Source of the DNA: an uncultured bacterium
GTDB taxonomy: Bacteria; Hydrothermota; Tepidihabitantia; B3-TA06; CAYQJV01
Length of the DNA stretch: 64,000 bases
NCBI GenBank assembly: GCA_964417925.1
Contig: CAYQJV010000001.1
Location: forward strand, 22,192 to 86,191
Reading direction: 5' to 3'
The translations under genes and the position numbers were made by a program. Position 1 is the first letter of the stretch. Each line of letters starts with the position of its first letter. Below the pieces are notes generated by a model that worked only from the letters and a program-made list of their open reading frames with translations, made no database searches and was not told where the DNA came from. Positions 51,414-64,000 of the stretch are shown one piece after another.

Positions 51414-51431
51414 TGTAACATTTATGTTACA
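51414..51431. promoter_or_regulatory. UAS-1: perfect 18-bp palindrome TGTAACATTTATGTTACA (predicted enhancer-binding-protein site)
   Basis: Inverted repeat TGTAACA-N4-TGTTACA with C-rich 5' flank ccctcaaaaag. Confidence 0.6.
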
Positions 51432-51486
51432 TTTAAATACAGTCTAAGCCTCATAATTACAGATACATACAAAAACCCTTCAAAAG

Positions 51487-51504
51487 TGTAACATTTGTGT
51501 TACA
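51487..51504. promoter_or_regulatory. UAS-2: palindrome TGTAACATTTGTGTTACA (one central substitution)
   Basis: Same half-sites. Centre is 73 bp from UAS-1. Confidence 0.6.
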
Positions 51505-51558
51505 TTCAAAGGCAATTTAAGTAATGTAGTTACAAAGCATACAAATACATTTAAAAAC

Positions 51559-51576
51559 TGTAACATTTATGTTACA
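51559..51576. promoter_or_regulatory. UAS-3: palindrome TGTAACATTTATGTTACA
   Basis: Centre is 72 bp from UAS-2 and about 80 bp upstream of the -24 element. Confidence 0.6.
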
Positions 51577-51646
51577 TTTTTGTTATATTCTGAAAAGCTT
51601 TCAATTTTTAAGTATAGGTATTTCATAACTTAATTTTTAGAATCTT

Positions 51647-51662
51647 TGGCATGTTTTTCGCT
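51647..51662 (+). promoter_or_regulatory. Predicted sigma-54 promoter (TGGCAT-N5-TCGC; -24 GG / -12 GC)
   Basis: GG and GC are at consensus spacing. The 29-bp block aatctttggcatgtttttcgctatataat is identical to the block at 63289-63317. Confidence 0.6.
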
Positions 51663-51711
51663 ATATAATATTGGGTGTAGAGAAAGGGGGTGAGATGATA
51701 AGAAAAAAACC

Positions 51712-51739
51712 TTGACAAAAGAATAAAAAAATATAAAAT
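51712..51739 (+). promoter_or_regulatory. Sigma-70-like promoter (TTGACA-N16-TAAAAT) inside the sigma-54 5'UTR, upstream of A1
   Basis: TTGACA at 51712-17, TATAAAAT at 51732-39. SD AGGAAG. The same element recurs at 54809-36 before A2. Confidence 0.45.
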
Positions 51740-51752
51740 TAGGAAGTGTAAA

Positions 51753-52163
51753 ATGAGAGGAGTAATAAAAATATTGGTTTTAGGTATGGTGGTGATGGTT
51801 ATAGCCCAGCCTTCCTATGATGAGAGGTGGGAAGGAGAGGCAGAAGGCACAGTAGTGGTGGATGGAGATACAATTGAGCCATGGGCTCACTGGACTGCCT
51901 GGGTTGAATATGATTATGTGCCTGGTAAGGATACTATTTGGGGAGTATGGCAGGATACGGAGACAGATGCATATGGAAATATATATGGTCATAGAAATGA
52001 GTCTGATGGTTCCGTTTCTGGAACATGGGATTGTGCTAATTATAATGTCTCTGGAGGATGGTCCGGAACCGCCACTGGTGGCGTAGGTAGTAAAGGCTCA
52101 GGAAAGTGGTGGATAAATGGGGAAGATAGTACAGGATGGTGGGAAGGTGAAAGAAAGGAGTAA
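51753..52163 (+). CDS. Small secreted Trp/Asp/Gly-rich protein A1 (136 aa, unknown family)
   Basis: Signal peptide MRGVIKILVLGMVVMVIAQP. Mature part is rich in W, D, G, E (WEGEAEG, GTWDC, WWINGEDSTGWWEGE). First 64 residues are identical to A2. Confidence 0.7.
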   Translation: MRGVIKILVLGMVVMVIAQPSYDERWEGEAEGTVVVDGDTIEPWAHWTAWVEYDYVPGKDTIWGVWQDTETDAYGNIYGHRNESDGSVSGTWDCANYNVSGGWSGTATGGVGSKGSGKWWINGEDSTGWWEGERKE

Positions 52164-52168
52164 AAATA

Positions 52169-52206
52169 AAGAGGGGGAGAGTTAAAAGGCTCTCTCCCTC
52201 TTTTTA
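52169..52206 (+). terminator. Intrinsic terminator/attenuator between A1 and B1
   Basis: AAGAGGGGGAGAG-ttaaaagg-CTCTCTCCCTCTT (12-13 bp stem, one G·U) followed by TTTTT. Confidence 0.6.
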
Positions 52207-52242
52207 AGGAGGGAATATGATGATGTTTTTACTTTTTTTTCA

Positions 52243-54795
52243 ATGATTATAAAAGATGATTTCCTTATATCTAAGGATAATCCAGTGCCATCTTCAAAAT
52301 CAAAGGTCTATGGGAAAGGTAGCAAAAAGGGAATCACAATTGTATGGCAAGATGAAAGGCTTGGAGGTGCATTTATAAAAGGAGATTATGCAGAAATTTT
52401 TTTCCAGAGTTTTGATTCCTTGAGGATGAAAATAGGAGGTAATAGAAGACTCGACATTACCCCTGAATGGAGGGTAAGAGTAGTGGGTGGTATAGGATAC
52501 TTTGATAAGGATGTTTCATTTCTCTGGAATACGGGAGATGGATTGTATTTTTGTAAGTATTCTAATAAAGGGGAACTTAAAATAAAAAGAAAAAGGATAA
52601 TCAGTGATGAAGAGTTTTATGGAAACTTGCGTCCTGATAAACCTGTTGGTTATTCAACTAATGAGATAAATAAAGGATTGGTATGCTTTACTGTGAGTTG
52701 TAAAAATGAAGGAGATAGAGTTTATGCTCTCTGTATCAATTCATGTGGTGAAGTTGTTCTTCCCATATTTACTGTAGATAGTATGCTTCCCGGAACCCCT
52801 TATTTCTGGAATGCAAAAGGTGCTATTTCAGATAGGGCATTTGGAGTTATTTATTGGGAAGGTGGGGTTGAGTATCGGATTAAGATATATACTCTTGATG
52901 GAAAATTTATTGATAAAATAATTTTGGGAAAGGGAGAGGGAACTCCCTATATTGAGATGGTAATGGATACCATTTATGTTGTGTGGTGTGAGTATCCTGA
53001 GATGAGCGTGTGGCTTGAGAAGTATGTTTTGAGAGAAGGTGGGGTTTCAAGGGAGTTTAAGGAGATGTTAAGCAAGGATGCATTGTGGTCTTCAAACATG
53101 CAGGTTGCTTTTGAATGGTGGGATAGGGATGAAGGACCTGTGGAAATTCCTTCTCTGGTTGTGATGACCGCATGGCATGACTGGGATGAAAAGAAGATAA
53201 AGTGCAGGGTATATTCAGGAGCAACTGGTGGTGAAATTGCAGGTGGTTCTTTTTCTCCCTCCGTTTCTGATACTGCAACTCCTGACTTTTCCCTTTTCTA
53301 TGGTGCAGGTAGGTTTCACATAGCATATGTTGACGACAGTAACCGGGTGATTGATGTTGCAACATATCTTACTCCTGATACCGAGCTTGTGTTTGCAGGT
53401 CCTCAGGTTGTAAGTGATGACAGCTGTGGTGAAGGATGGAGTGATGCAAGGCTTGCGGTTAACAGTAATGGAGATTTTGCAATTCTTTACTGGTCACCGG
53501 AAGGAAAGGCATTTGTAAAGTTTTTTGACAGAGATGGAAATCAGATATCCAAAGAGATAGATATTTCTACTCTCTTCACAACAAGATGTCCTTCAATGAT
53601 AGCTCCAATGATAGCAATGGATAATGAAAGAAATTTAATGGTAATAGCTTTGGAGGATTGGCTGGAGACTCTTCCGCCTATAAGGATAGAGTTTTATGGA
53701 TTGATTGTTAAGCCTTCAGGAGAAATAAAGAGGTTCAATATAGGGAGGTATCCTGAGGAGCTATACATAGGCGATAGTTATCTCACCTGTAATTCAAAAG
53801 GGGATTTCCTTTTCCTGTGGGATGAATTTCCATTTGGTTCTGAGGAAGAGAGAAATGTTATAAAGGGCAGGTTTTTTGATGCAAATGGAAGGCCAAAGAC
53901 AGATGTTTTTACTCTCAAGTTTCCTCTTGGCCCTATACACCCCACTGGAGCTGATGTTTTTGAGAATGGAGGGGCGGTTGTGGCGGCTGCAATGTCAAAT
54001 GCTGCACGCTCATGGGCAGTTGTGATAGACAGCACCGGTAATCCTTTGACAGAGTTAATAGAGTTTATACGCACCTATCCCGTTATTGCCTGTGATGGGA
54101 GGAATAGATGGGTGATGGCGGGATTAAATGTAAAGCCAAACTACATGGTTTTTGATAGAAAGGGCAATGTGATAAAGGATTTGCAGGTGATAGATGCATA
54201 TACATTTCCTTGGCCTTCTTTCTTTGGTCCTCGCCAGTTGTGGTGTGATATGGATACATCAGGGAGGTTTATAATCTACTGGACAGATTTTACTGAGGAT
54301 GCAAATCCTGATGTAAGGGCACAGATATTTTCAAGGGATGGTGACCCGGTATCAGAGATATTTGAGGTTCATAATCCTGATGCATTTCCTTATGAGTATC
54401 AGCTTTCTACCTGGCAGGGACTTGGAGTGACATCGGATAGGATTTATTTTATGTGGCTTGACAATCGCAGGATAAAGGGTTGGGACATATATGCAAAGGT
54501 AACGGACTGGGAGTATCCAACAGGAATTAAAGAAAAGAGAGAAAGTAAAAACTTAGATATAGAGTATTTGGGACCCCATATTTTAATAAGGTTTTCCCTT
54601 TCTTTTCCTCAGAATTTATCTATCAAACTCTACGATGTTTCAGGAAGAGTGGTAAAAAGCATCTTTTTAAAGGCAAAGAAAGGAGAAAATACAATTGAGA
54701 TAGAAAAAAATTTCCCTCCTGGAGTGTATTTTTTGAGAATAGAAGGGAAGGAAAAAGAATATAGCACTAAGATTCTCATTGTAAAAGGGAAATGA
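52243..54795 (+). CDS. Large beta-propeller-repeat protein B1 with T9SS C-terminal sorting domain. The 5' end is frame-disrupted relative to its SD-positioned ATG at 52217
   Basis: C-terminus LSIKLYDVSGRVVKSIFL…PGVYFLRIEG…KILIVKGK matches the Por_Secre_tail pattern. Internal repeats GDF-hhh-W…(I/V)xGRFFDxNGxP. SD AAGGAGGG at 52207-14 serves the ATG at 52217, whose frame stops at 52244 unless the T8 run (52233-40) gains one T. Confidence 0.7.
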   Translation: MIIKDDFLISKDNPVPSSKSKVYGKGSKKGITIVWQDERLGGAFIKGDYAEIFFQSFDSLRMKIGGNRRLDITPEWRVRVVGGIGYFDKDVSFLWNTGDGLYFCKYSNKGELKIKRKRIISDEEFYGNLRPDKPVGYSTNEINKGLVCFTVSCKNEGDRVYALCINSCGEVVLPIFTVDSMLPGTPYFWNAKGAISDRAFGVIYWEGGVEYRIKIYTLDGKFIDKIILGKGEGTPYIEMVMDTIYVVWCEYPEMSVWLEKYVLREGGVSREFKEMLSKDALWSSNMQVAFEWWDRDEGPVEIPSLVVMTAWHDWDEKKIKCRVYSGATGGEIAGGSFSPSVSDTATPDFSLFYGAGRFHIAYVDDSNRVIDVATYLTPDTELVFAGPQVVSDDSCGEGWSDARLAVNSNGDFAILYWSPEGKAFVKFFDRDGNQISKEIDISTLFTTRCPSMIAPMIAMDNERNLMVIALEDWLETLPPIRIEFYGLIVKPSGEIKRFNIGRYPEELYIGDSYLTCNSKGDFLFLWDEFPFGSEEERNVIKGRFFDANGRPKTDVFTLKFPLGPIHPTGADVFENGGAVVAAAMSNAARSWAVVIDSTGNPLTELIEFIRTYPVIACDGRNRWVMAGLNVKPNYMVFDRKGNVIKDLQVIDAYTFPWPSFFGPRQLWCDMDTSGRFIIYWTDFTEDANPDVRAQIFSRDGDPVSEIFEVHNPDAFPYEYQLSTWQGLGVTSDRIYFMWLDNRRIKGWDIYAKVTDWEYPTGIKEKRESKNLDIEYLGPHILIRFSLSFPQNLSIKLYDVSGRVVKSIFLKAKKGENTIEIEKNFPPGVYFLRIEGKEKEYSTKILIVKGK

Positions 54796-54808: not shown

Positions 54809-54836
54809 TTGACAAAAAATAAAAAAAATATAAAAT
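54809..54836 (+). promoter_or_regulatory. Sigma-70-like promoter (TTGACA-N16-TAAAAT) for A2-B2. No UAS or sigma-54 element in this copy
   Basis: TTGACA at 54809-14, TATAAAAT at 54829-36. Duplicate of the 51712-39 element. Confidence 0.45.
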
Positions 54837-54840
54837 AGGG

Positions 54841-55254
54841 GTGGTGAGAAGAGTAATAAAAATATTGGTTTTAGGTATGGTGGTAATGGTTATAGCCCAG
54901 CCTTCCTATGATGAGAGGTGGGAAGGAGAGGCAGAAGGCACAGTAGTGGTGGATGGAGATACAATTGAGCCATGGGCTCACTGGACTGCCTGGGTTGAAT
55001 ATGATTATGTGCCTGGTAAGGATACTATCTGGGGTATATGGTGGGATGATGAGGGAGATACAGGGAGGATATATGGACACCGAGATGAAGCAAACGACTC
55101 TGTTTTTGGAACATGGGATTGTATCAACTGTGATGTATCTGGGGAATGGGAGGGAAAGGCAAATTATCCTACGACAGATAATGCACAAGGAGAGTGGTGG
55201 GTAACAAGTGGTGGAACTGGGGATGGCACATGGAGTGGGCATAGAGAAGAATAA
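54841..55254 (+). CDS. Small secreted Trp-rich protein A2 (paralog of A1; GTG start, or GTG at 54844)
   Basis: Identical signal peptide and N-terminal half to A1. C-terminal half diverged (IWWDDEGDTGRIYGHRDE…GEWWVTSGGTGDGTWSGH). Confidence 0.7.
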   Translation: MVRRVIKILVLGMVVMVIAQPSYDERWEGEAEGTVVVDGDTIEPWAHWTAWVEYDYVPGKDTIWGIWWDDEGDTGRIYGHRDEANDSVFGTWDCINCDVSGEWEGKANYPTTDNAQGEWWVTSGGTGDGTWSGHREE

Positions 55255-55260
55255 AAACAT

Positions 55261-55282
55261 GGGAGCCGGAAATCCGGCTCCC
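55261..55282 (+). other. GC-rich hairpin without U-tract between A2 and B2 (stability/processing element rather than terminator)
   Basis: GGGAGCCGG-aaat-CCGGCTCCC followed by ATAAAAAGGAGG (SD of B2). Confidence 0.45.
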
Positions 55283-55300
55283 ATAAAAAGGAGGTAAAAA

Positions 55301-57898
55301 ATGATATTTTTATTGTTTTTAATAGTTATAAAAGATGATTTCCTGGTATCTAAGGATAATCCATGCCATTCTTTTAAGTGTCAGGTTTTTGGAAAAGGAG
55401 AGGTGGATGGTTATACCATTGTATGGAGAGATGGGAGAACCGGAACAATTAATTTACCGAGTTTTTATGAGGAAATTTTCTTTCAGTGTTTTGATTCAAA
55501 TAGAGTTAAAATTGGGGATAACACAAGACTTGGGACATCTTCTGAGTGGAAGACAAGATATCTCGGGGGCATAGGATACTTCAAAGATGCAGTATCATTT
55601 ATATGGAATGAAGGATCCGGGATGGGGCAGGCAGATATTCAGGATACCATGGGAACCATTTACTTCTGTAAGTATGATAACAATAGGAATATGGTGATAA
55701 AACCTAAAAAACTCATTGATCATAATGATATTCGTATTTATCCATTTTATCCAGTACATTATTCTACCAATGGATGTAACAGAGGACTGGTATGTTTTGG
55801 GGAGATTGGAGAAAAGAAAACAAACTTTTATGCCTTGGTTATTGATTCTTGTGGAGAAATTCTTCTTCCTTTATTTGTTGTGGATACGGTTTCTGGGTCC
55901 CATCCAATTGTGAGGGGAGCAATATCAGACAGGTATTTTGCAATATTTTATTCCACCACTTTCAATCCTGCTATTTCCAGGATGAAGGTCTATTCAATTG
56001 ATGGAAAGGAAATTGATAGGATAGTTTTTGGAGAAAGCTTCAAGGCTTCTGCTATTAAAGTATTTCTTGACACAATTTATGTTGTTTGGAGTCCGTATTT
56101 TTATGATAGGGGTGAAGAGCTATGGTTGGAGAAGTATGTGGTTAAGGATGATGGTGTTGAGAGGGTATTTCAGGAGATTTTGATGAATAGATATCCAGCA
56201 AATATGCAGGTTGCTTTTGGATGGTGGGATAGGGATGAAGGACCTGTGGAGGTTCCTTCTCTGGTTGTGATGATCGCGTGGCATGACTGGGATGAGAAGA
56301 AGATAAAGTGCAGGGTGTATTCAGGAGCAACTGGTGGTGAAATTGCAGGTGGTTCTTTTTCTCCCTCTGTTTCTGATACTGCAACTCCTGATTTTTCTCT
56401 TTTCTATGGTGCAGGAAGGTTTCACATAGCATATGTTGATGACAGTAACCGGGTGATTGATGTTGCAACATATCTTACTCCTGATACCGAGCTTGTGTTT
56501 GCAGGTCCTCAGGTTGTAAGTGATGATACCTGTGGCAGGGGATGGAGTGATGCAAGGCTTGCAGTAAACAGCAATGGAGACTTTGCAATTTTTTACTGGT
56601 GCTATTATTATGACAGTCTGCGTGCCTTTGTGAAATTTTTTGATCAAAATGGAGATGAACTTTCAAAAGAGATTGAGGTTCCTCTTCGTTTCACAAGGTT
56701 TACCAATGTAACGACGGCTATGGATGATAGGAGAAATTTGATGATAATACATGCTCCTGAGGTTCTGGAAAAAAATGAGAATGGTCGTCCCACAAGGATA
56801 AGGTTTTATGGGGTTATTGTTAATCCCTCTGGAGAGGTCAAAAAGTTTACCATAGGGGAGTATCCACCTGATGAGTTTTACATGTCCTGGCATAGTTATG
56901 TTGCATGTAATTCTAAAGGGGATTTTCTTATACTCTGGTGTCATTTTCCTGGAGGGGATGGTCCTGAAAATGTTATAAGGGGCAGGTTTTTTGATGCAAA
57001 TGGAAGACCGAAAACAGATGTTTTTACTCTCAAGTTTCCCATAGGTCCCATAATGCCCACTGGGGCTGTTGTTTTTGAGGATGGAGGGGCGGTTGTAGGA
57101 GCTGCACTGTCAAATGCTGCACGCTCATGGGCGGTTGTGATAGACAGCATCGGTAATCCTTTAACAGAATTAATAGAGTTTATACGCACTTATCCTGTTA
57201 TTGCCTGTGATGGGAGGGATAGATGGGTGATGGCAGGATTAGATGTAAAGCCAAACTGCATGGTTTTTGATAGAAAAGGAAATGTGATAAGGGATTTGCA
57301 GGTGATAGATGCATATACATTTGCCTGGCCATCCCCAATTTTCCCTCAGCAGTTATGGTGTGATATGGATACATCAGGGAGGTTTATAATTTACTGGACA
57401 GATTTTACCGAGGATGCAAATCCGGATGTCAGGGCACAGATATTTTCAAGGGATGGTGACCCGGTATCAGAGATATTTGAGGTTCATAATCCTGATGCAT
57501 TTCCTTATGAGTATCAGCTTTCTACCTGGCAGGGACTTGGAGTGACATCGGATAGGATTTATTTTATGTGGCTTGACAATCGCAGGATAAAGGGCTGGGA
57601 CATATATGCAAAGGTAACGGACTGGGAGTATCCAACAGGAATTAAAGAAAAGAGAGAAAGTAAAAACTTAGATATAGAGTATTTGGGACCCCATATTTTA
57701 ATAAGGTTTTCCCTTTCTTTTCCTCAGAATTTATCTATCAAACTCTACGATGTTTCAGGAAGAGTGGTAAAAAGCATCTTTTTAAAGGCAAGGGAAGGAG
57801 AAAACAGGGTTGAAATAAAAAAGGATTTTCCCCAGGGAGTGTATTTTTTGAGGATAGAAAAAGGGAAAGTTTTACACAAAAAAATAATAATATTGTAA
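55301..57898 (+). CDS. Large beta-propeller-repeat protein B2 with T9SS C-terminal sorting domain (paralog of B1)
   Basis: SD AAGGAGGT 6 nt before the ATG. Short hydrophobic N-terminus MIFLLFLIVI. C-terminal 310 aa are almost identical to B1, including the CTD. Confidence 0.75.
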   Translation: MIFLLFLIVIKDDFLVSKDNPCHSFKCQVFGKGEVDGYTIVWRDGRTGTINLPSFYEEIFFQCFDSNRVKIGDNTRLGTSSEWKTRYLGGIGYFKDAVSFIWNEGSGMGQADIQDTMGTIYFCKYDNNRNMVIKPKKLIDHNDIRIYPFYPVHYSTNGCNRGLVCFGEIGEKKTNFYALVIDSCGEILLPLFVVDTVSGSHPIVRGAISDRYFAIFYSTTFNPAISRMKVYSIDGKEIDRIVFGESFKASAIKVFLDTIYVVWSPYFYDRGEELWLEKYVVKDDGVERVFQEILMNRYPANMQVAFGWWDRDEGPVEVPSLVVMIAWHDWDEKKIKCRVYSGATGGEIAGGSFSPSVSDTATPDFSLFYGAGRFHIAYVDDSNRVIDVATYLTPDTELVFAGPQVVSDDTCGRGWSDARLAVNSNGDFAIFYWCYYYDSLRAFVKFFDQNGDELSKEIEVPLRFTRFTNVTTAMDDRRNLMIIHAPEVLEKNENGRPTRIRFYGVIVNPSGEVKKFTIGEYPPDEFYMSWHSYVACNSKGDFLILWCHFPGGDGPENVIRGRFFDANGRPKTDVFTLKFPIGPIMPTGAVVFEDGGAVVGAALSNAARSWAVVIDSIGNPLTELIEFIRTYPVIACDGRDRWVMAGLDVKPNCMVFDRKGNVIRDLQVIDAYTFAWPSPIFPQQLWCDMDTSGRFIIYWTDFTEDANPDVRAQIFSRDGDPVSEIFEVHNPDAFPYEYQLSTWQGLGVTSDRIYFMWLDNRRIKGWDIYAKVTDWEYPTGIKEKRESKNLDIEYLGPHILIRFSLSFPQNLSIKLYDVSGRVVKSIFLKAREGENRVEIKKDFPQGVYFLRIEKGKVLHKKIIIL

Positions 57899-57968: not shown

Positions 57969-57996
57969 TTGCATTTTTAGAAAAAATATGTATACT
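57969..57996 (+). promoter_or_regulatory. Sigma-70-type promoter (TTGCAT-N16-TATACT) for the small-ORF + kinase-EBP operon
   Basis: TTGCAT at 57969-74, TATACT at 57991-96. SD AAGGAGG at 58003-09, ATG at 58015. Confidence 0.45.
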
Positions 57997-58014
57997 TTCA
58001 AAAAGGAGGCTGTA

Positions 58015-58332
58015 ATGGTTTCATTACCGAAAAGTACTGTATACGGGGATGGTGTTAAAATCAACTCTTTACATGCAATACAGCTTCTTGACATGGAAAT
58101 TACATCTGTTAAAAGAAAAAGACGTGTAAAAAGTTCTTTGAGCACAATGTTCTTTATCAACCTCCTCTACAAAAAAGAATGCAATAAAATTACTGTCCAG
58201 ATGGATCCTGTAATAACTCACAAGAGTTATGACTACATAAATCATTGCTATAGAAACAGCAATAATAAAAAAGATAGTTTCCAAAAATTAAAGAAAATTT
58301 ACAACGAAGTAATAAACTTAACTAACAGGTGA
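58015..58332 (+). CDS. Small hypothetical protein (105 aa) translationally coupled to the kinase-EBP gene
   Basis: Strong SD then ATG at 58015 (the ORF track's 57988 start lacks an SD). Stop TGA overlaps the downstream GTG start (GTGA at 58329-32). No recognisable motif. Confidence 0.45.
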   Translation: MVSLPKSTVYGDGVKINSLHAIQLLDMEITSVKRKRRVKSSLSTMFFINLLYKKECNKITVQMDPVITHKSYDYINHCYRNSNNKKDSFQKLKKIYNEVINLTNR

Positions 58333-61300
58333 GCAGGTATAAAATAGTAGAAAAGATAGGGGAGGGAAATTACACCGTAGTATATAGAGCATATGACATC
58401 CTTTCTCAGAAGGAAGTGGCATTAAAAACTCTAAAGAACAAAGGAATTGATCCCGTGATTCTTAAAAGAGAGTATGTATTTTTAAAAAAATGCTCCCATC
58501 CTTATATAGTAAAGGTATATGAAGCAGGGTACTTAAAAGACACTCCTTATTTTACAATGGAGTACATAAAAGGAGAGGATATAAAGCAGTATCTAAAAAA
58601 GAAACGAAACGAGCAAAATTTCTGGACAATTTTTTCCACGCTCTTTTTAAAAATAGTTGCAGGAGTATCCCACTTTCACTTTAAAGGAATAATACATGGC
58701 GATCTCAAACCAAACAATATTCTTGTAGATGAACAGGACAATGTGAAAATAATAGATTTTGGTTTTGCCTTATTAAAAGGAGAAAAACCAGAGGGAACTA
58801 CAGTAGTATACACTGCTCCTGAAATCCTTAAAGGAAACCTTGATTATAGAGCAGACATTTATGCTATAGGGATGATAATGTACGAAATTATAGAAGGTAA
58901 AGATTTATTTACTCAACTCACCCCTGTAAATATTGTAAAAGAAAAGTTAAAATTTATTCCTTCTTTTTCAAAACCTATACCTTCTGAACTTAAAAATCTT
59001 GTGAAAAATATGCTTTCTCCAGAACCTTTCTTCAGACCGGATGCAAAAGAAATATACAGCACACTTTCAAAACTATCTGCAGAAAAAATAGAGATACAAT
59101 CCCAAGAGGAAATGACCACAATGCCAGTGGTAGGAAGAGAAGAACTAATAGATACTGCTTTAAAAGAGGGTAACAAAATAATATTCTATGGAGACCATGG
59201 TTATGGAAAATCAACTTTATTAAAAGAAATATCTTTTAGGGCTTGGCTTAAGAAAAAAAGGGTATTTGAAATCAATAAAGATAAAGAATACCTGCTTCTT
59301 GAATATTTAAAAACTCACTATAAAGTTAAAGCAACATCCAGGGAACATCTGTTTGCAGATATTGTATCCTCCCTTGAGAAAGAGTACGACATCTTCATAT
59401 TTGATGACCTACATCTATACTCTGAAGATGATATTGAGTTTGCAAGGTATCTTTATCTTTCCACAAAGAAGAATGTAATATTCTCAGCATTACCTTTAGA
59501 GTCCTTAAAAAAGAAGTTTGAAGAACCAGGCAGAATAGCGATAAAAAATATTCCTTCATTATCACCTAAAGAAATAAAAACTCTTGTATATATTCTTTTC
59601 CCAACCCTATCTCAGAAAGAGGAACTTACAGAAGAGCTCTATAGAATAACAAAAGGAATACCTCTGCTTTTAAAAAGCATTATTGAGATATTTTTAAAAG
59701 AAAAAATCCTTAAAAAAGAAGAGGATAAATTTATTTTTAATAGAGAGAAAATCAAAGGGTTAGAACTACCGAAAACTGTAAAAGAATTTGTAAAGAATTC
59801 ATTCAAAGAATTAAATGAAGATGAAAAAAACTTCTTACTTGCTGTCCACCTATTAAAAGACTTTGCATCCTTATCCAACATCTATCAAATGGTACAACTA
59901 AAAGAGGATAAGATATATTCCATAGCAGAAAGTTTAAAAATAAAAGAACTTATAAAAATAATCCAAAAAAACAACACAATTATCTACACACTTTCAACTG
60001 GAATTTATATCCCCTTTATAAAAAAACTAAAAAGTTATAAAGACCTTTTGGAAAAAAGTATAAAAATAATTGAAAAGGAAAACAGCACCAAAAAAATATA
60101 TCTTCTTGCAGAATACAACCATATTCTCGGTAAAAAAGAAAAGGCAGTTGATTATCTCTACACTGCAGTAAATACGGCAAGAAAAACCTCCCTCCTTTGT
60201 GAAGCAAAGAAATTTATAGAAATACTCATCCAGAACTATCCTATAGAAGACATACCAAACCCTTGCAAATTTTGTATTGTAGCCGGAGACATCTATCTAC
60301 TGCTTCATGAATTAAAAAAGGCTCAGACATTTTTCTCAATATCATTTTCCTTCTGCCCTCAAGAAAGAAAAAGTGATATTCATCACAGGATTGCTCAAAC
60401 AATGTTTTATCAGGGAAATATCAAAGATGCAAAACTGGAAACAATAAAGGGATTAAAATATGCAAAAGATAAACATGAATTATTGAATTTTCTATCATGG
60501 CTTTACATCTTTGATGGTGAAAAGCAAAGAGCAGAAAGAATCTTAAACCATGTAATAGCACATACAAATAACAAAGAGATACTTTCAAATGCATACTATA
60601 ACCTTGCAATACTTTACAAAAAATATAACCAATTTATTAAATGTGCTACGGTGCTTGGGAAAAGCATAAAATATCTAAAGGAAAAAGACATCTATGGTTA
60701 TGCGTTAAGACTTGAAATTGCTTGTGAAATGCTACTTCAGAAGGGATTTTTTAGAAATGCAGAAAGAATACTTTTAAAAATAAAAAATATTTGGGGAAAA
60801 ATTAAAAACTTAAATAAATATACATCAACTTTAATAAACATGGGAAGAATAAAAAGATTTGAAAATCCCAAAAAAGCACTTGAATACTTCCATCAAGCAG
60901 AAATCATGAGTCTCAAAATAAAAGATTATGAACTTTTTGCAAGTGCCCTTCTTAACTCTGCATTCTTATTTGAAACATACGGAAGAACTGAACAGGCTCT
61001 TGAAAGCATAGGTAAACTTCTTACATACGAACAAAAAATTTCAGAAGAGAGATTTTGTAAAGGAGTTTTTTATTATACAAAGTATCTACTTTTAACGAAT
61101 CAGATAGAAAAAGCAGAAGAATTTCTTAAAACCATCAAAAGGAAAGACTCTTCTTGGTGCCTTTTATCACAGACATTGGTTCTTTTTGAAAAAAATGATG
61201 ATAAAAGATTCAGAAAGGAGATGGTAGAAATACTATTAAGGGAAAATACCGAAGAAGAAGTCTCTGAAGCTCTTAATATTCTTTTTGAATATCATTACAA

Positions 61301-63149
61301 TAAAAATGATTTGGAAAGATGTAAAACCATCCTTGAAAGGATTAAAAAGATATCATATGCGAAAAAAAATCCTTTTAAAGAAGTTGAGATAATGTTAAAA
61401 ACAGCAATCCTTTTAAAAGATAAAAAACTACTTGAAGAAACAATAAAAAGAGCAGAAAGAATTCACTATTTCAATGCAAAACCCCTTGCCCTATCTATAC
61501 TTGGAAAGATATATTATGAGAAAGGAGATTACTTGAAGGCATATAAACATCTAAAAGAAGCAAGGGAAAATTTTGAGAGAATAGGAATGATAAATACCGC
61601 AGAAAAGATAAAAAAATATGAAGAAAAAGCAAAGGAAAAAAGTATAGAAATCCAAGTACCGGAAAGGAAATACTTAGATACACTTGAAAGAATAAGCGCT
61701 GTGGTAAAGGACTATTTTGGAAAAGATGAGTTTTTCCTTGAACTTTTAAACATTCTGATAGAAGCAACCTCTGCAGAAAGAGGAATGGTCATGATAGGGG
61801 AGAACCAAGAAAATCTATACTGCGTGGGAACTACAAATATAGATGAAGTTACTTATGTCGATGCAACCGCATTTTCAAAGACTGTATTAAAACATGTAAG
61901 AGAAGGTAAAAGAGGGATATATACAGAAGATGCAACAAAAGATCCCAGGTTTAAAGATGCAGAAAGTGTCAAACTAAAAGAGATAAAGTCAATTCTATGC
62001 GTTCCATTAATGGCAAAAGATGAAGTTATAGGAGTTCTCTATCTTGATAGTTCACTCAAAAAAGGACTCTTTACAGAAGAAACTCTAAAATTCATGGAGT
62101 CTGTATCAAATATAATAGGCACATTTGTGTATACCTCTTATACCGCAGAGAAAAAGTTTAAAGAACTTGAAAGGATAAAACTAAAAACTCAAGAAATAGT
62201 AATAGGAAGATCAAGAAAAATAAAAAGGATATTCAAGGAAATCCAACAAATTGCTCAAACAGATTCAAACATCCTCCTTATAGGAGAAACAGGAACAGGT
62301 AAAGGGGTAATTGCACGGTTAATTCATGAAAAGAGCAGGCGGAGCGAATATCTCTTTCAGTATATAAACTGTGGAGCAATTCCCTATGAACTATTTGAAG
62401 CAGAACTATTTGGATACAAAAAAGGAGCCTTCACAGGTGCAAGAGAAACAAGAAAGGGCTTACTTGAAGAGGCTCATAAAGGAACCGTTTTTTTGGATGA
62501 AATAGCAAATATTCCAATATCTGTCCAGGCAAAGTTGCTGGATGTAATAGAGCGAAAAAAAATAAGAAGGCTTGGAGAAAATATAGAAAGGGATATTGAT
62601 GTAAGGTTTATATTTGCAACAAACAGAGATTTAGAACAAGAAATAGAAAAGGAAAAGTTCAGAAATGACCTGTATTACCGAATTTCAACAACTGTTATTG
62701 AAATTCCACCACTAAGAGAAAGAAAAGAAGATATTCCTATATTTGTAGATTTCTTCATAGATAAATTTTCAAAAGAACTTAACAAAAATATAAAGGGAGT
62801 TTCACAAGAAGCCATGGAAATACTATTAAAATACCACTGGCCAGGAAATATAAGAGAGCTTTCCAATGTAATTGAACGGGCTGTAATTATGGCAGATAAA
62901 GAAACCATAGGCAAAAATCACATAGATAGAGGAATAATTGAATCAGTAATACCACCAGCCCCTCTAAAAATTGAAACAGAAAAAGTAAAGAAAGAGATGA
63001 TAATAAAGGCACTTCAACTCCACAAAGGTAACATCAAAAAAACAGCCCAATACCTGCACATAACCCGTCAACACCTCTCCAGGCTTTTAAAAAGATACAA
63101 CATTGACCCAGCCCAGTATAAACACCCCCAAAACCCCCAAAAAGTGTAA
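58329..63149 (+). CDS. Multidomain one-component regulator: Ser/Thr protein kinase + P-loop NTPase + TPR array + GAF + sigma-54 activator AAA+ + Fis-type HTH (1606 aa)
   Basis: Kinase motifs VALKTL, HGDLKPNN (58695-718), DFG, APE. P-loop GDHGYGKST (59190-216). Long TPR-like helical repeats. GAF-like block LLNILIEATSAERGMVMIG…VLYLDS. Sigma-54 AAA+ Walker A GETGTGKG (62283-306), GAFTGA (62424-41), Walker B VFLDEI, WPGNIRELSNVIERA. C-terminal HTH KTAQYLHITRQHLSRLLKRY. Confidence 0.8.
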   Translation: MSRYKIVEKIGEGNYTVVYRAYDILSQKEVALKTLKNKGIDPVILKREYVFLKKCSHPYIVKVYEAGYLKDTPYFTMEYIKGEDIKQYLKKKRNEQNFWTIFSTLFLKIVAGVSHFHFKGIIHGDLKPNNILVDEQDNVKIIDFGFALLKGEKPEGTTVVYTAPEILKGNLDYRADIYAIGMIMYEIIEGKDLFTQLTPVNIVKEKLKFIPSFSKPIPSELKNLVKNMLSPEPFFRPDAKEIYSTLSKLSAEKIEIQSQEEMTTMPVVGREELIDTALKEGNKIIFYGDHGYGKSTLLKEISFRAWLKKKRVFEINKDKEYLLLEYLKTHYKVKATSREHLFADIVSSLEKEYDIFIFDDLHLYSEDDIEFARYLYLSTKKNVIFSALPLESLKKKFEEPGRIAIKNIPSLSPKEIKTLVYILFPTLSQKEELTEELYRITKGIPLLLKSIIEIFLKEKILKKEEDKFIFNREKIKGLELPKTVKEFVKNSFKELNEDEKNFLLAVHLLKDFASLSNIYQMVQLKEDKIYSIAESLKIKELIKIIQKNNTIIYTLSTGIYIPFIKKLKSYKDLLEKSIKIIEKENSTKKIYLLAEYNHILGKKEKAVDYLYTAVNTARKTSLLCEAKKFIEILIQNYPIEDIPNPCKFCIVAGDIYLLLHELKKAQTFFSISFSFCPQERKSDIHHRIAQTMFYQGNIKDAKLETIKGLKYAKDKHELLNFLSWLYIFDGEKQRAERILNHVIAHTNNKEILSNAYYNLAILYKKYNQFIKCATVLGKSIKYLKEKDIYGYALRLEIACEMLLQKGFFRNAERILLKIKNIWGKIKNLNKYTSTLINMGRIKRFENPKKALEYFHQAEIMSLKIKDYELFASALLNSAFLFETYGRTEQALESIGKLLTYEQKISEERFCKGVFYYTKYLLLTNQIEKAEEFLKTIKRKDSSWCLLSQTLVLFEKNDDKRFRKEMVEILLRENTEEEVSEALNILFEYHYNKNDLERCKTILERIKKISYAKKNPFKEVEIMLKTAILLKDKKLLEETIKRAERIHYFNAKPLALSILGKIYYEKGDYLKAYKHLKEARENFERIGMINTAEKIKKYEEKAKEKSIEIQVPERKYLDTLERISAVVKDYFGKDEFFLELLNILIEATSAERGMVMIGENQENLYCVGTTNIDEVTYVDATAFSKTVLKHVREGKRGIYTEDATKDPRFKDAESVKLKEIKSILCVPLMAKDEVIGVLYLDSSLKKGLFTEETLKFMESVSNIIGTFVYTSYTAEKKFKELERIKLKTQEIVIGRSRKIKRIFKEIQQIAQTDSNILLIGETGTGKGVIARLIHEKSRRSEYLFQYINCGAIPYELFEAELFGYKKGAFTGARETRKGLLEEAHKGTVFLDEIANIPISVQAKLLDVIERKKIRRLGENIERDIDVRFIFATNRDLEQEIEKEKFRNDLYYRISTTVIEIPPLRERKEDIPIFVDFFIDKFSKELNKNIKGVSQEAMEILLKYHWPGNIRELSNVIERAVIMADKETIGKNHIDRGIIESVIPPAPLKIETEKVKKEMIIKALQLHKGNIKKTAQYLHITRQHLSRLLKRYNIDPAQYKHPQNPQKV

Positions 63150-63162
63150 CATTTATGTTACA
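63145..63162. promoter_or_regulatory. UAS-4: palindrome TGTAACATTTATGTTACA overlapping the regulator's stop codon
   Basis: TAA stop (63147-49) is inside the left half-site. C-rich flank cccccaaaaag. Confidence 0.6.
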
Positions 63163-63217
63163 TTTTGAGGCGGTCTAAGTTACGTAATTAAGTATATATA
63201 CAAATACCCCCAAAAAG

Positions 63218-63235
63218 TGTAACATTTATGTTACA
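63218..63235. promoter_or_regulatory. UAS-5: palindrome TGTAACATTTATGTTACA
   Basis: Centre is 73 bp from UAS-4 and about 70 bp upstream of the -24 element. Confidence 0.6.
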
Positions 63236-63294
63236 TTTTGAAAAAACCCCAATTTTTAAGTTACGGTGTTTTTTGACTTAATTTTTAAAATCTT

Positions 63295-63310
63295 TGGCAT
63301 GTTTTTCGCT
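63295..63310 (+). promoter_or_regulatory. Predicted sigma-54 promoter (TGGCAT-N5-TCGC), second copy
   Basis: 29-bp block identical to 51641-51669. SD AAGGAGGT and ATG at 63371 lie downstream. Confidence 0.6.
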
Positions 63311-63370
63311 ATATAATTATTAGTGTATGAAAAGGGAAATAAAAAACAAAAAAATAAAAAGGAGGTAAAC

Positions 63371-63532
63371 ATGAAAAAGTTGTTAGCATTGCTTGTTTTT
63401 GTTGGTGGTTTGCTTTTTGCTGATCCGCCTTCCCCTTGTGGTGGACCTGGAGATGATCCTCCTGATCCTACACCACCACCTCCTATTCCTATAGACGTAG
63501 AAAATATTGTTGAGGTGATACCGGGGGAGTAA
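63371..63532 (+). CDS. Small secreted Pro/Asp-rich peptide (53 aa precursor)
   Basis: Strong SD. Signal peptide MKKLLALLVFVGGLLFA. Mature DPPSPCGGPGDDPPDPTPPPPIPIDVENIVEVIPGE. The ORF track's 63323 start lacks an SD and sits at the predicted TSS. Confidence 0.55.
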   Translation: MKKLLALLVFVGGLLFADPPSPCGGPGDDPPDPTPPPPIPIDVENIVEVIPGE

Positions 63533-63735
63533 TGCTTAGAACTGAGGGGGCAATAAGGCTGAAGGCGAGAAAGGGATTAAAGGGATTAGAGATAAAGAAT
63601 GGGGACTATGTACGCATATTCACCACTACCCTGGATGATGAGTTTCTTGCAGAAATCCTTCGTTCTGTACCCAGATGTTATGAAGTACGGATAAAGCATG
63701 AAAGATTTGATGTTGAACTTTCCCTTACGCATTAG
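63532..63735 (+). CDS. Hypothetical 67-aa protein, start overlapping the upstream stop (TAATG)
   Basis: ORF with 1-nt start/stop overlap to the peptide gene. No recognisable motif. Confidence 0.35.
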   Translation: MLRTEGAIRLKARKGLKGLEIKNGDYVRIFTTTLDDEFLAEILRSVPRCYEVRIKHERFDVELSLTH

Positions 63736-63779
63736 CATGGGGAGGGGGTGTTGTCTATGGAGCATAGGAAAGGAGTAAA

Positions 63780-64000
63780 GAATGTTAAGGATGAGTAGGA
63801 GAATAGTTGCCACTATAAGAGAGCCTGATAAGGATAGAAGAGGAAGGGTAGTTGCTGTAATAATAGAACCTTATGAAATAGTATCTTTTAAAGAAATTTT
63901 GAAACTTGCATGCAATGGAACGGTATTTTATGTCAAAAATGGACATTACTTAGAAAGTGTACTGCCTTTTGATAGGGATGGAGATGGAAAGCCTGATTCC
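63780..64000 (+). CDS. Hypothetical protein, 3'-partial (runs off window)
   Basis: SD AGGAG 6-7 nt before the ATG at 63780. Open frame to window end. Not in the ORF track because it has no stop. Confidence 0.3.

Follow-up and report, generated by a model that had tools for sequence, protein, structure and literature searches.

The stretch of DNA analysed here, a 64,000-nucleotide segment of contig CAYQJV010000001.1 from an uncultured bacterium (the window, in which all positions below are counted), encodes close to its right-hand end a very large predicted regulator of 1606 amino acids (aa). At 63125-63321, overlapping the 3' end of the regulator gene, are two copies of a palindrome followed by a 29-bp block that resembles a promoter of the sigma-54 type. 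We refer to this region as module 2 and to a similar arrangement at 51414-51662 as module 1. The regulator gene and the two modules comprise the following features.

58329-63149, forward strand: gene of the 1606-aa regulator, with Ser/Thr kinase, P-loop/STAND-like ATPase, TPR, GAF, sigma-54 AAA+, AAA lid and Fis-type HTH (helix-turn-helix) domains in this order
63145-63162, no strand assigned: distal putative enhancer site (upstream activating sequence, UAS) of module 2, TGTAACATTTATGTTACA, centred at about -167 from the predicted start
63218-63235, no strand assigned: proximal putative UAS of module 2, the same 18-mer TGTAACATTTATGTTACA, centred at about -94
63256-63281, no strand assigned: inverted repeat TTAAGT-N14-ACTTAA, located after the proximal UAS and before the -24 element
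63289-63317, forward strand: 29-bp block AATCTTTGGCATGTTTTTCGCTATATAAT, identical to 51641-51669, which holds the sigma-54 core
63295-63310, forward strand: predicted sigma-54 core TGGCATGTTTTTCGCT of module 2, with GG at 63296-97 (-24) and GC at 63308-09 (-12)
51414-51576, no strand assigned: the three palindromes of module 1, at 51414-31, 51487-504 (one mismatch) and 51559-76
51647-51662, forward strand: predicted sigma-54 core of module 1, identical to that of module 2, upstream of a 136-aa secreted-protein gene and of genes for cargo of the type IX secretion system (T9SS)

A sequence-only reading of this DNA had proposed that an identical 29-bp block stands at two places and that it forms a promoter for sigma-54; the first proposal is confirmed and the second, for a -24/-12 promoter, is well supported. 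The copies at 51641-69 and 63289-317 match exactly and are the only two in the window; no third was found with up to three mismatches, and none is expected from shuffled sequences. The core reads TGGCATG-N4-TCGCT, close to TGGCAC-N5-TTGCW, with the GG and GC exactly 10 nt apart as the geometry of such promoters demands. In a weighted consensus scan it scores 13.5 out of 15.5, a level reached on both strands of the 64 kb by the two module copies only. It is one base off the Clostridiales consensus TTGGCAT-N5-TTGCT (PMC6615313). The transcription start is predicted at about 63321, leaving a leader of about 50 nt to the ATG at 63371, and both the orientation of the promoter and its distance are suitable for the gene downstream. 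For module 1 the predicted start is at about 51673.

The core is also kept in homologous cassettes. We compared the regions upstream of five homologues of the 136-aa gene of module 1 (L016, L017, L018, L019 and L021), which were found on short metagenome contigs, from sediment of the Guaymas Basin, from a hydrothermal vent and from two other assemblies; ERZ940666 and JGI 3300003332 are samples with such cassettes. The encoded proteins have between 64% and 90% or more aa identity, and the five upstream regions represent three distinct promoter sequences. All five carry TGGCAC-N5-TTGCT at the same position. When L016, L017, L019 and L021 were aligned with the two modules of the window, TTTGGCA, TTT.GCT and an upstream CTTA.A.TTT.A were invariant in the six sequences, while the intervening and flanking bases varied. 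For the homologues of the module 1 gene the -24 and -12 elements have therefore been kept while their surroundings changed; the genes behind module 2 are orphans. Judged by geometry, rarity and conservation, the predicted identity of the block as a sigma-54 promoter is strongly supported. The columns CTTA.A.TTT.A invariant in these alignments belong to the inverted repeat TTAAGT-N14-ACTTAA, which recurs at 51608-51633 in module 1 and at about 113-138 in L017 and is degenerate in L016. It occupies the usual position of an IHF site, yet does not match the IHF consensus, and could be a candidate site for a bending protein or another auxiliary factor.

Each palindrome consists of two perfect 8-bp arms, TGTAACAT and ATGTTACA, around a non-symmetric TT, and has the form TGT-N12-ACA. 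The two palindromes of module 2 start 73 bp apart, corresponding to about 7 helical turns. Of the earlier description of two perfect palindromes in 73-bp phasing, the positions (63145-62 and 63218-35) and the spacing stand, but the word perfect is loose, given the TT at the centre. The same reading placed the stop codon of the regulator gene inside the first palindrome, and this is correct: the open reading frame (ORF) 58329-63149 ends at the TAA at 63147-63149, and the distal palindrome covers both this codon and the last sense codon. In module 1 the palindromes are spaced by 73 and 72 bp and are centred at about -250, -177 and -105. With up to one mismatch the motif occurs at just five places in the 64-kb window, against 0.00 expected from shuffles, and these sites are the sole repeated palindromes with 7-bp arms in the window. 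Both clusters sit 94-250 bp upstream of the two predicted sigma-54 promoters. They thus have the properties looked for in a UAS, namely dyad-symmetric sites in several copies (two in module 2, three in module 1) some 80-250 bp upstream of a sigma-54 promoter. The spacers between the palindromes are homologous to each other and share ..T.TAAG.. and ATACAAA.AC..; as judged from these similarities, the period of 72-73 bp derives from tandem copies of one unit.

Outside the window, a scan of metagenomes for the palindrome pair returned four loci only (L010-L013), all unrelated, in other contexts and lacking a sigma-54 promoter. L011 (927-1016) and L013 (684-773) contain three perfect, iteron-like 37-bp tandem repeats with TGTAACAT-NN-ATGTTACA sites, and in L010 (87-180) and L012 (3516-3609) two such sites lie in a promoter-like region beside a divergent gene. 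From these sequences, the TGTAACAT-NN-ATGTTACA palindrome is evidently also used by other DNA-binding proteins. A literature search found no paper on TGTAACA as an enhancer motif.

The regulator itself gave Pfam matches to Sigma54_activat (2e-66), Pkinase (1.4e-48), AAA_lid_14 (7.8e-28), GAF (1.2e-11) and HTH_8 (8.9e-8), as well as to P-loop/AAA_22 and TPR families. Its translation retains, all in intact form, the GAFTGA loop, Walker A and B motifs (GETGTGKG and FLDEI) and, for the kinase, HGDLKPNN and DFG; the HTH domain covers residues from about 1540 to 1606. An AAA+ domain with GAFTGA and Walker A and B motifs, joined to a C-terminal Fis-type HTH, is what defines a bacterial enhancer-binding protein of the NtrC/NifA superfamily, and among the approximately 45 ORFs scanned in the window this protein is the only one of the kind. 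The closest solved structures are those of ZraR, Aquifex NtrC1/4 and NifA (E values of 1e-70 to 1e-72). In NCBIfam the GAF-AAA+-HTH part ranks highest with NifA, PrdR, NorR and FhlA, in every case below the cut-off; against the NifA equivalog TIGR01817 it reaches 359 bits, the cut-off being 528.85. By these scores the regulator resembles NifA in its GAF-AAA+-HTH part, yet is no NifA.

Relatives of the complete protein are few and distant. The full architecture from kinase to GAF-AAA+ is found, at 31-38% identity to the regulator, in about eight proteins in the databases, which are 1300-1800 aa long and come from Calditrichaeota, Ca. Electryoneota and metagenome contigs. In a genome collection we found eight distant regulator loci, the best of them in a Calditrichaeota metagenome-assembled genome (32% identity), and in none of the eight is the gene accompanied by a strong sigma-54 site or by repeated palindromes. 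A literature search retrieved no description of a sigma-54 activator fused to a kinase.

Homology between the two modules spans about 215 bp (approximately 51470-51690 versus 63125-63335, with one 11-bp indel in the alignment), from some 20 bp upstream of a palindrome to some 15 bp beyond the predicted start. Identity along this alignment is uneven. The palindromes agree at 94% and 100%, the block at 100% and the 12 bp before the block (-40 element) at 92%, while the spacers agree at 64% and 71% and the sequence beyond about +15 at 50%. By this alignment, a single regulatory segment of some 215 bp is present as two paralogous copies, and the identity over 29 bp is for this reason neither independent evidence nor an independent recurrence. 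This modifies the earlier argument that the identity speaks for selection rather than chance. The two copies are not two independent occurrences; what speaks for selection is the uneven conservation, 94-100% in palindromes and block versus 64-71% in the spacers. By our own estimate, a perfect run of 29 bp at the background identity of about 68% has a chance of about 0.003 over the segment. The 11-bp indel lies between the proximal UAS and the promoter and changes the distance of this UAS to the -24 GG from 7.67 helical turns to 6.62. Since 11 bp make one full turn, the site is retained on its face of the helix.

At its end the regulator gene overlaps, by about seven codons (…HPQNPQKV; 63125-63149), a 5' flank that belongs to the repeat unit, CCCCCAAAA(A)G, and that recurs before the other palindromes except the proximal palindrome of module 1. 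The overlap suggests that the duplicated regulatory segment supplied the regulator gene with its present C-terminus and stop codon. Independent short-read assemblies from three sequencing runs of the same strain break exactly at the palindromes (the end of L001 and the start of L014, at about 63162 and 63212), which is a sign of a repeat unit longer than the assembler's k-mer length. Both contigs are 100% identical to the window and add no variation. The strain is present in runs SRR21418557 and SRR15988951/2.

The explanation that we favour, and consider probable, takes 63125-63321 to be a control region of classical enhancer type that depends on sigma-54. Going by what is established for activators of this sort, RNA polymerase carrying sigma-54 would rest on the -24/-12 core (63295-63310) as a closed complex, unable to start unaided. 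Dimers of an enhancer-binding protein would occupy the TGT-N12-ACA palindromes, which are centred at about -94 and -167 and face the same side of the helix, where they would form an ATP-hydrolysing ring that contacts sigma-54 by looping of the DNA and opens the promoter. Transcription from about 63321 would then run into an operon for a 53-aa secreted peptide, 67-aa and 99-aa orphan proteins and, probably, HypA and an Mrp-like ATPase. The most likely activator would be the 1606-aa kinase/STAND/TPR/GAF/AAA+/HTH protein, encoded by the gene that terminates in the distal palindrome. This protein would drive module 1 as well, giving a regulon of two operons. Module 2 would have come from duplication of the regulatory segment only, from about -195 to +15, after which selection kept the palindromes and the promoter.

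Several observations weigh against this explanation. The promoter departs from consensus at -14, with C instead of T. At the equivalent position, about 100 bp upstream of the predicted start, the related cassettes carry not the palindrome but AAAAAGTGTAAACTGTAAACA, a motif of the TGTAAAC type seen in L016, L017 and L021, which shares the left half of the window palindrome and is otherwise different. The gene rpoN is not among the approximately 45 ORFs scanned in the window, and that this genome encodes sigma-54 is presumed only because the activator is intact. Searched against 5.8 billion proteins, the regulator has no close orthologue, none being above 34% identity; the matches were the protein itself and relatives at 38% identity or less, and the distant homologues of the same architecture at L002 and L007 have no comparable module nearby. 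Classical enhancer sites such as those of NtrC and NorR are about 20-35 bp apart, closer than the 73 bp seen here. Because the inter-palindrome spacers are homologous, this spacing may merely reflect tandem duplication of a 73-bp unit.

The alternative that survives best accepts the sigma-54 promoter and assigns the palindromes to another protein, be it a different enhancer-binding protein with its gene elsewhere in the genome, a repressor or an anti-activator, with the kinase-fused protein acting on other targets. We regard it as possible though unlikely. It draws on the fact that we infer binding of the palindromes by the 1606-aa regulator from proximity and motif class only, with 64 kb of the genome in view, and on the occurrence of paired TGTAACAT-NN-ATGTTACA sites at L010-L013, unaccompanied by a sigma-54 promoter. 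On the other hand, a sigma-54 promoter requires an activator, of which the window contains one, and the form of the sites is that expected for a Fis-type HTH like those of NifA and PrdR. In addition, most regulators of this type adjoin their targets (PMC6615313), and both palindrome clusters flank the block of genes that contains the regulator gene.

The favoured enhancer-type control can also be carried further. In such an extended version the giant signalling protein, with its eukaryote-like Ser/Thr kinase, STAND switch and GAF-controlled sigma-54 ATPase, would run a private regulon of two promoters, for orphan secreted proteins and T9SS cargo of a poorly sampled hydrothermal lineage, through enhancers unusually far apart, at a constant 7 helical turns. 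The enhancer on the stop codon would activate the operon behind it and would double as a protein roadblock that ends the regulator transcript in place of the missing terminator. We think this rather improbable.

We give little credence to the idea that module 2 was left behind passively when module 1 underwent segmental duplication or served as donor in gene conversion, the identity then reflecting recent copying instead of a function here. Such an event would leave homology of the kind seen over about 215 bp, other duplications are present in the region (among them a tandem cassette, 90-96% identical in parts), and the repeat unit takes in about seven codons at the end of the regulator gene, which looks like an insertion of the segment at that 3' end. 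However, a recent neutral copy would not be expected to show spacers at 64-71% beside elements at 94-100%, nor, at the chance of about 0.003 given above for a background of about 68%, a perfect run of 29 bp. The copy also ends at about +15, well placed before a gene that has a strong ribosome-binding site and no other recognisable promoter, and its 11-bp indel preserves the helical phase.

It is very unlikely that the palindromes work as RNA hairpins, either as a terminator or as a 3' stabiliser of the regulator mRNA. The first palindrome is located exactly at the 3' end of the regulator gene, with no other terminator before the next gene, and folds with -14.9 kcal/mol (z=-4.8); the second reaches -9.7. 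However, the T-run pairs with an upstream A-run and leaves no free U-tail, and the stems are rich in A and U and would be weak in an apparently thermophilic organism. Moreover, the three copies in module 1 occupy a divergent intergenic region and are downstream of no gene, pdxJ being transcribed in the opposite direction, so that a terminator would serve nothing there. An intrinsic terminator was rejected on similar grounds, as a scan of 62900-64000 found no terminator-like site, the hairpins being A/U-rich and the T-run paired.

We attach scarcely any weight to the reading of the block as a sigma-70 promoter with the TATAAT at 63312-63317 as its -10 element, the likeness to sigma-54 being coincidental. 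A perfect TATAAT does close the block, and A/T-rich, -10-like hexamers follow the GC in all homologues. At 16-18 bp upstream, however, there is no acceptable -35 element (ATCTTT or CCTTTT is found there), and TTGGCA is just 12 bp away. A sigma-70 scan does not call the site, and the columns invariant in the six sequences are exactly the -24 and -12 elements. The genuine sigma-70-like promoters of this organism, at 51712 and 54809, also look different (TTGACA-16-TAAAAT). The sigma-70 reading of TATAAT was rejected on the absence of a -35 element, the scan and the invariant columns.

That the 73-bp units form a small array like those of clustered regularly interspaced short palindromic repeats (CRISPR), or a mobile repeat of the miniature inverted-repeat transposable element (MITE) or repetitive extragenic palindromic (REP) class, can practically be dismissed: a repeat of about 42 nt with a palindromic core does recur every 72-73 bp and short-read assemblies do break there, but the would-be spacers are mutually homologous, there are two or three units, and the only two loci in 64 kb are both fused to the same promoter. 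No cas genes were found among the ORFs of the window, and neither the promoter block nor the palindrome has matches in viral contigs. This candidate was rejected on spacer homology, copy number and the lack of copies in viral contigs. The earlier reading would have been in difficulty had the block proved to be a mobile repeat present at many unrelated sites, which it did not, with two loci in the window and none in viral contigs. No Rfam families were found in the window.

The sigma-54 control region that we favour can be compared with well-studied systems. Fifteen groups of Fis-HTH activators bind TGT/ACA inverted repeats with a 10-12-bp spacer, as do NifA and FhlA; most activator groups have several UAS per promoter, with most sites 100-250 bp upstream; and activator genes usually lie beside their targets, one third of the regulators controlling two to six operons (PMC6615313). 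The arrangement of the modules fits each of these points. As at NifA, FhlA and PrdR promoters, there are several TGT...ACA dyads about 100-250 bp upstream of a -24/-12 element, with the gene of a GAF, AAA+ and Fis-type HTH activator adjacent. The present case differs in that the activator falls below the NifA, PrdR, NorR and FhlA equivalog cut-offs and has about 1100 extra N-terminal residues (Ser/Thr kinase, STAND-like ATPase and TPR), and in that the sites are 73 bp apart instead of closely paired. The predicted targets differ as well: orphan secreted proteins and T9SS cargo here, nitrogen fixation, formate metabolism and proline reduction there.

In the NorR-norVW system, one of several with GAF-type activators and more than one mandatory enhancer site, the GAF domain controls the AAA+ domain, and the inverted-repeat sites are contained in about 100 bp of a divergent intergenic region. 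The window shares with it a GAF-controlled AAA+ protein and identical inverted repeats upstream of a single sigma-54 promoter beside the regulator gene. Unlike there, one site covers the stop codon of the regulator gene itself, and a duplicate of the module is found at a distance of 11.6 kb. Ser/Thr kinase, STAND/AAA and TPR domains in succession are the architecture of PknK/MalT-like "LAL" regulators, and the N-terminal 1100 residues have kinase, P-loop and TPR in that order; here they are fused to a sigma-54 activator.

A regulator gene beside its target, with a site over the stop codon, is normal for compact genomes and for regulons of this kind. What is unusual lies outside the coordinates first pointed out: the giant kinase-fused activator, the wide spacing of its predicted sites by seven turns and the orphan secreted proteins that are the predicted targets. 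Knowledge of sigma-54 control as such is unchanged by the finding. Its value lies in a regulon prediction, clean and open to testing, with one motif, two promoters and two operons, for the very large sigma-54 activators fused to kinases, which are an uncharacterised class, and in an example of regulon growth in which the regulatory segment alone was copied to a place in front of new genes.

The genes that would be transcribed from module 2 begin as follows.

63360-63365, forward strand: AGGAGG ribosome-binding site, 5 nt before the ATG at 63371
63371-63532, forward strand: first gene after the promoter, 53 aa, whose N-terminus resembles a signal peptide and whose acidic tail is rich in proline; no family match
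63532-63735, forward strand: 67-aa orphan ORF, whose start overlaps the preceding stop codon
63782-64000, forward strand: start of a 99-aa orphan ORF that runs past the end of the window; no real homologues

No record was found for the 53-aa peptide. The 67-aa ORF, searched against 1.84 billion representative proteins, returned itself and one marginal, partial match only, to a protein of 1205 aa (E value of 1e-4, with 35% identity in some 28 residues). L014, the identical contig from other sequencing runs, reaches past the window and contains the 99-aa ORF, then HypA, then an Mrp/ApbC-type P-loop ATPase. The order 53-aa, 67-aa, 99-aa, HypA and Mrp/ApbC ATPase thus lies on one strand, and a convergent gene follows. 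At 911-2007 of L014 the gene of HypA, the nickel chaperone of hydrogenase and urease, overlaps that of the Mrp/ApbC-type ATPase. In pairing HypA with Mrp/ApbC, the arrangement is reminiscent of the Mrp/MinD-type HypB found in some archaea.

Module 1 stands before a pair of genes duplicated in tandem, for a secreted protein of 136/137 aa and a protein of 850/865 aa with a T9SS sorting domain. The two copies of this two-gene cassette occupy 51753-54795 and 54841-57898, and their DNA is 90-96% identical in parts. The 136/137-aa proteins are rich in tryptophan; save for the T9SS C-terminal sorting domain, the cassette proteins have no family match. Directly upstream of the 136- and 137-aa genes, at 51712-51739 and 54809-54836, are near-consensus promoters of the sigma-70 type, TTGACA-16-TAAAAT (11/12), which are conserved in the Guaymas loci too. 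From these sequences the first cassette seems to have a sigma-54 and a sigma-70 promoter in tandem. Transcripts from its sigma-70 promoter would begin inside the ribosome-binding site or directly behind it.

Each small gene is followed, before the gene of the T9SS cargo, by a hairpin, at 52168-52206 (-25.5 kcal/mol, z=-4.7) and 55258-55285 (-22.9, z=-6.3). The first, with its T-run, looks like a terminator or attenuator. If it acts as one, the small protein would be made at high and the large protein at low levels, and read-through from module 1 to the regulator would be unlikely. Autoregulation of the regulator from module 1 is doubtful, because this hairpin and T-run of -25.5 kcal/mol follow the first gene and because the regulator gene has 430 bp of upstream region to itself. 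At 57988-58332 is an orphan ORF (105-114 aa, with its likely start at ATG 58016 after AAGGAGG) that has no family match and is also called as a gene in the independent assembly L001. Its stop overlaps the GTG start of the regulator (GTGA), and because of this overlap translational coupling of the two genes is suggested.

Among 15 billion sequences clustered at 90% identity, the housekeeping proteins PheS, DnaE, a class-V aminotransferase and an acyl-CoA dehydrogenase are singletons. These singletons, the T9SS sorting domains and the hydrothermal origin of samples jointly suggest a poorly sampled, probably thermophilic, FCB-group-like lineage.

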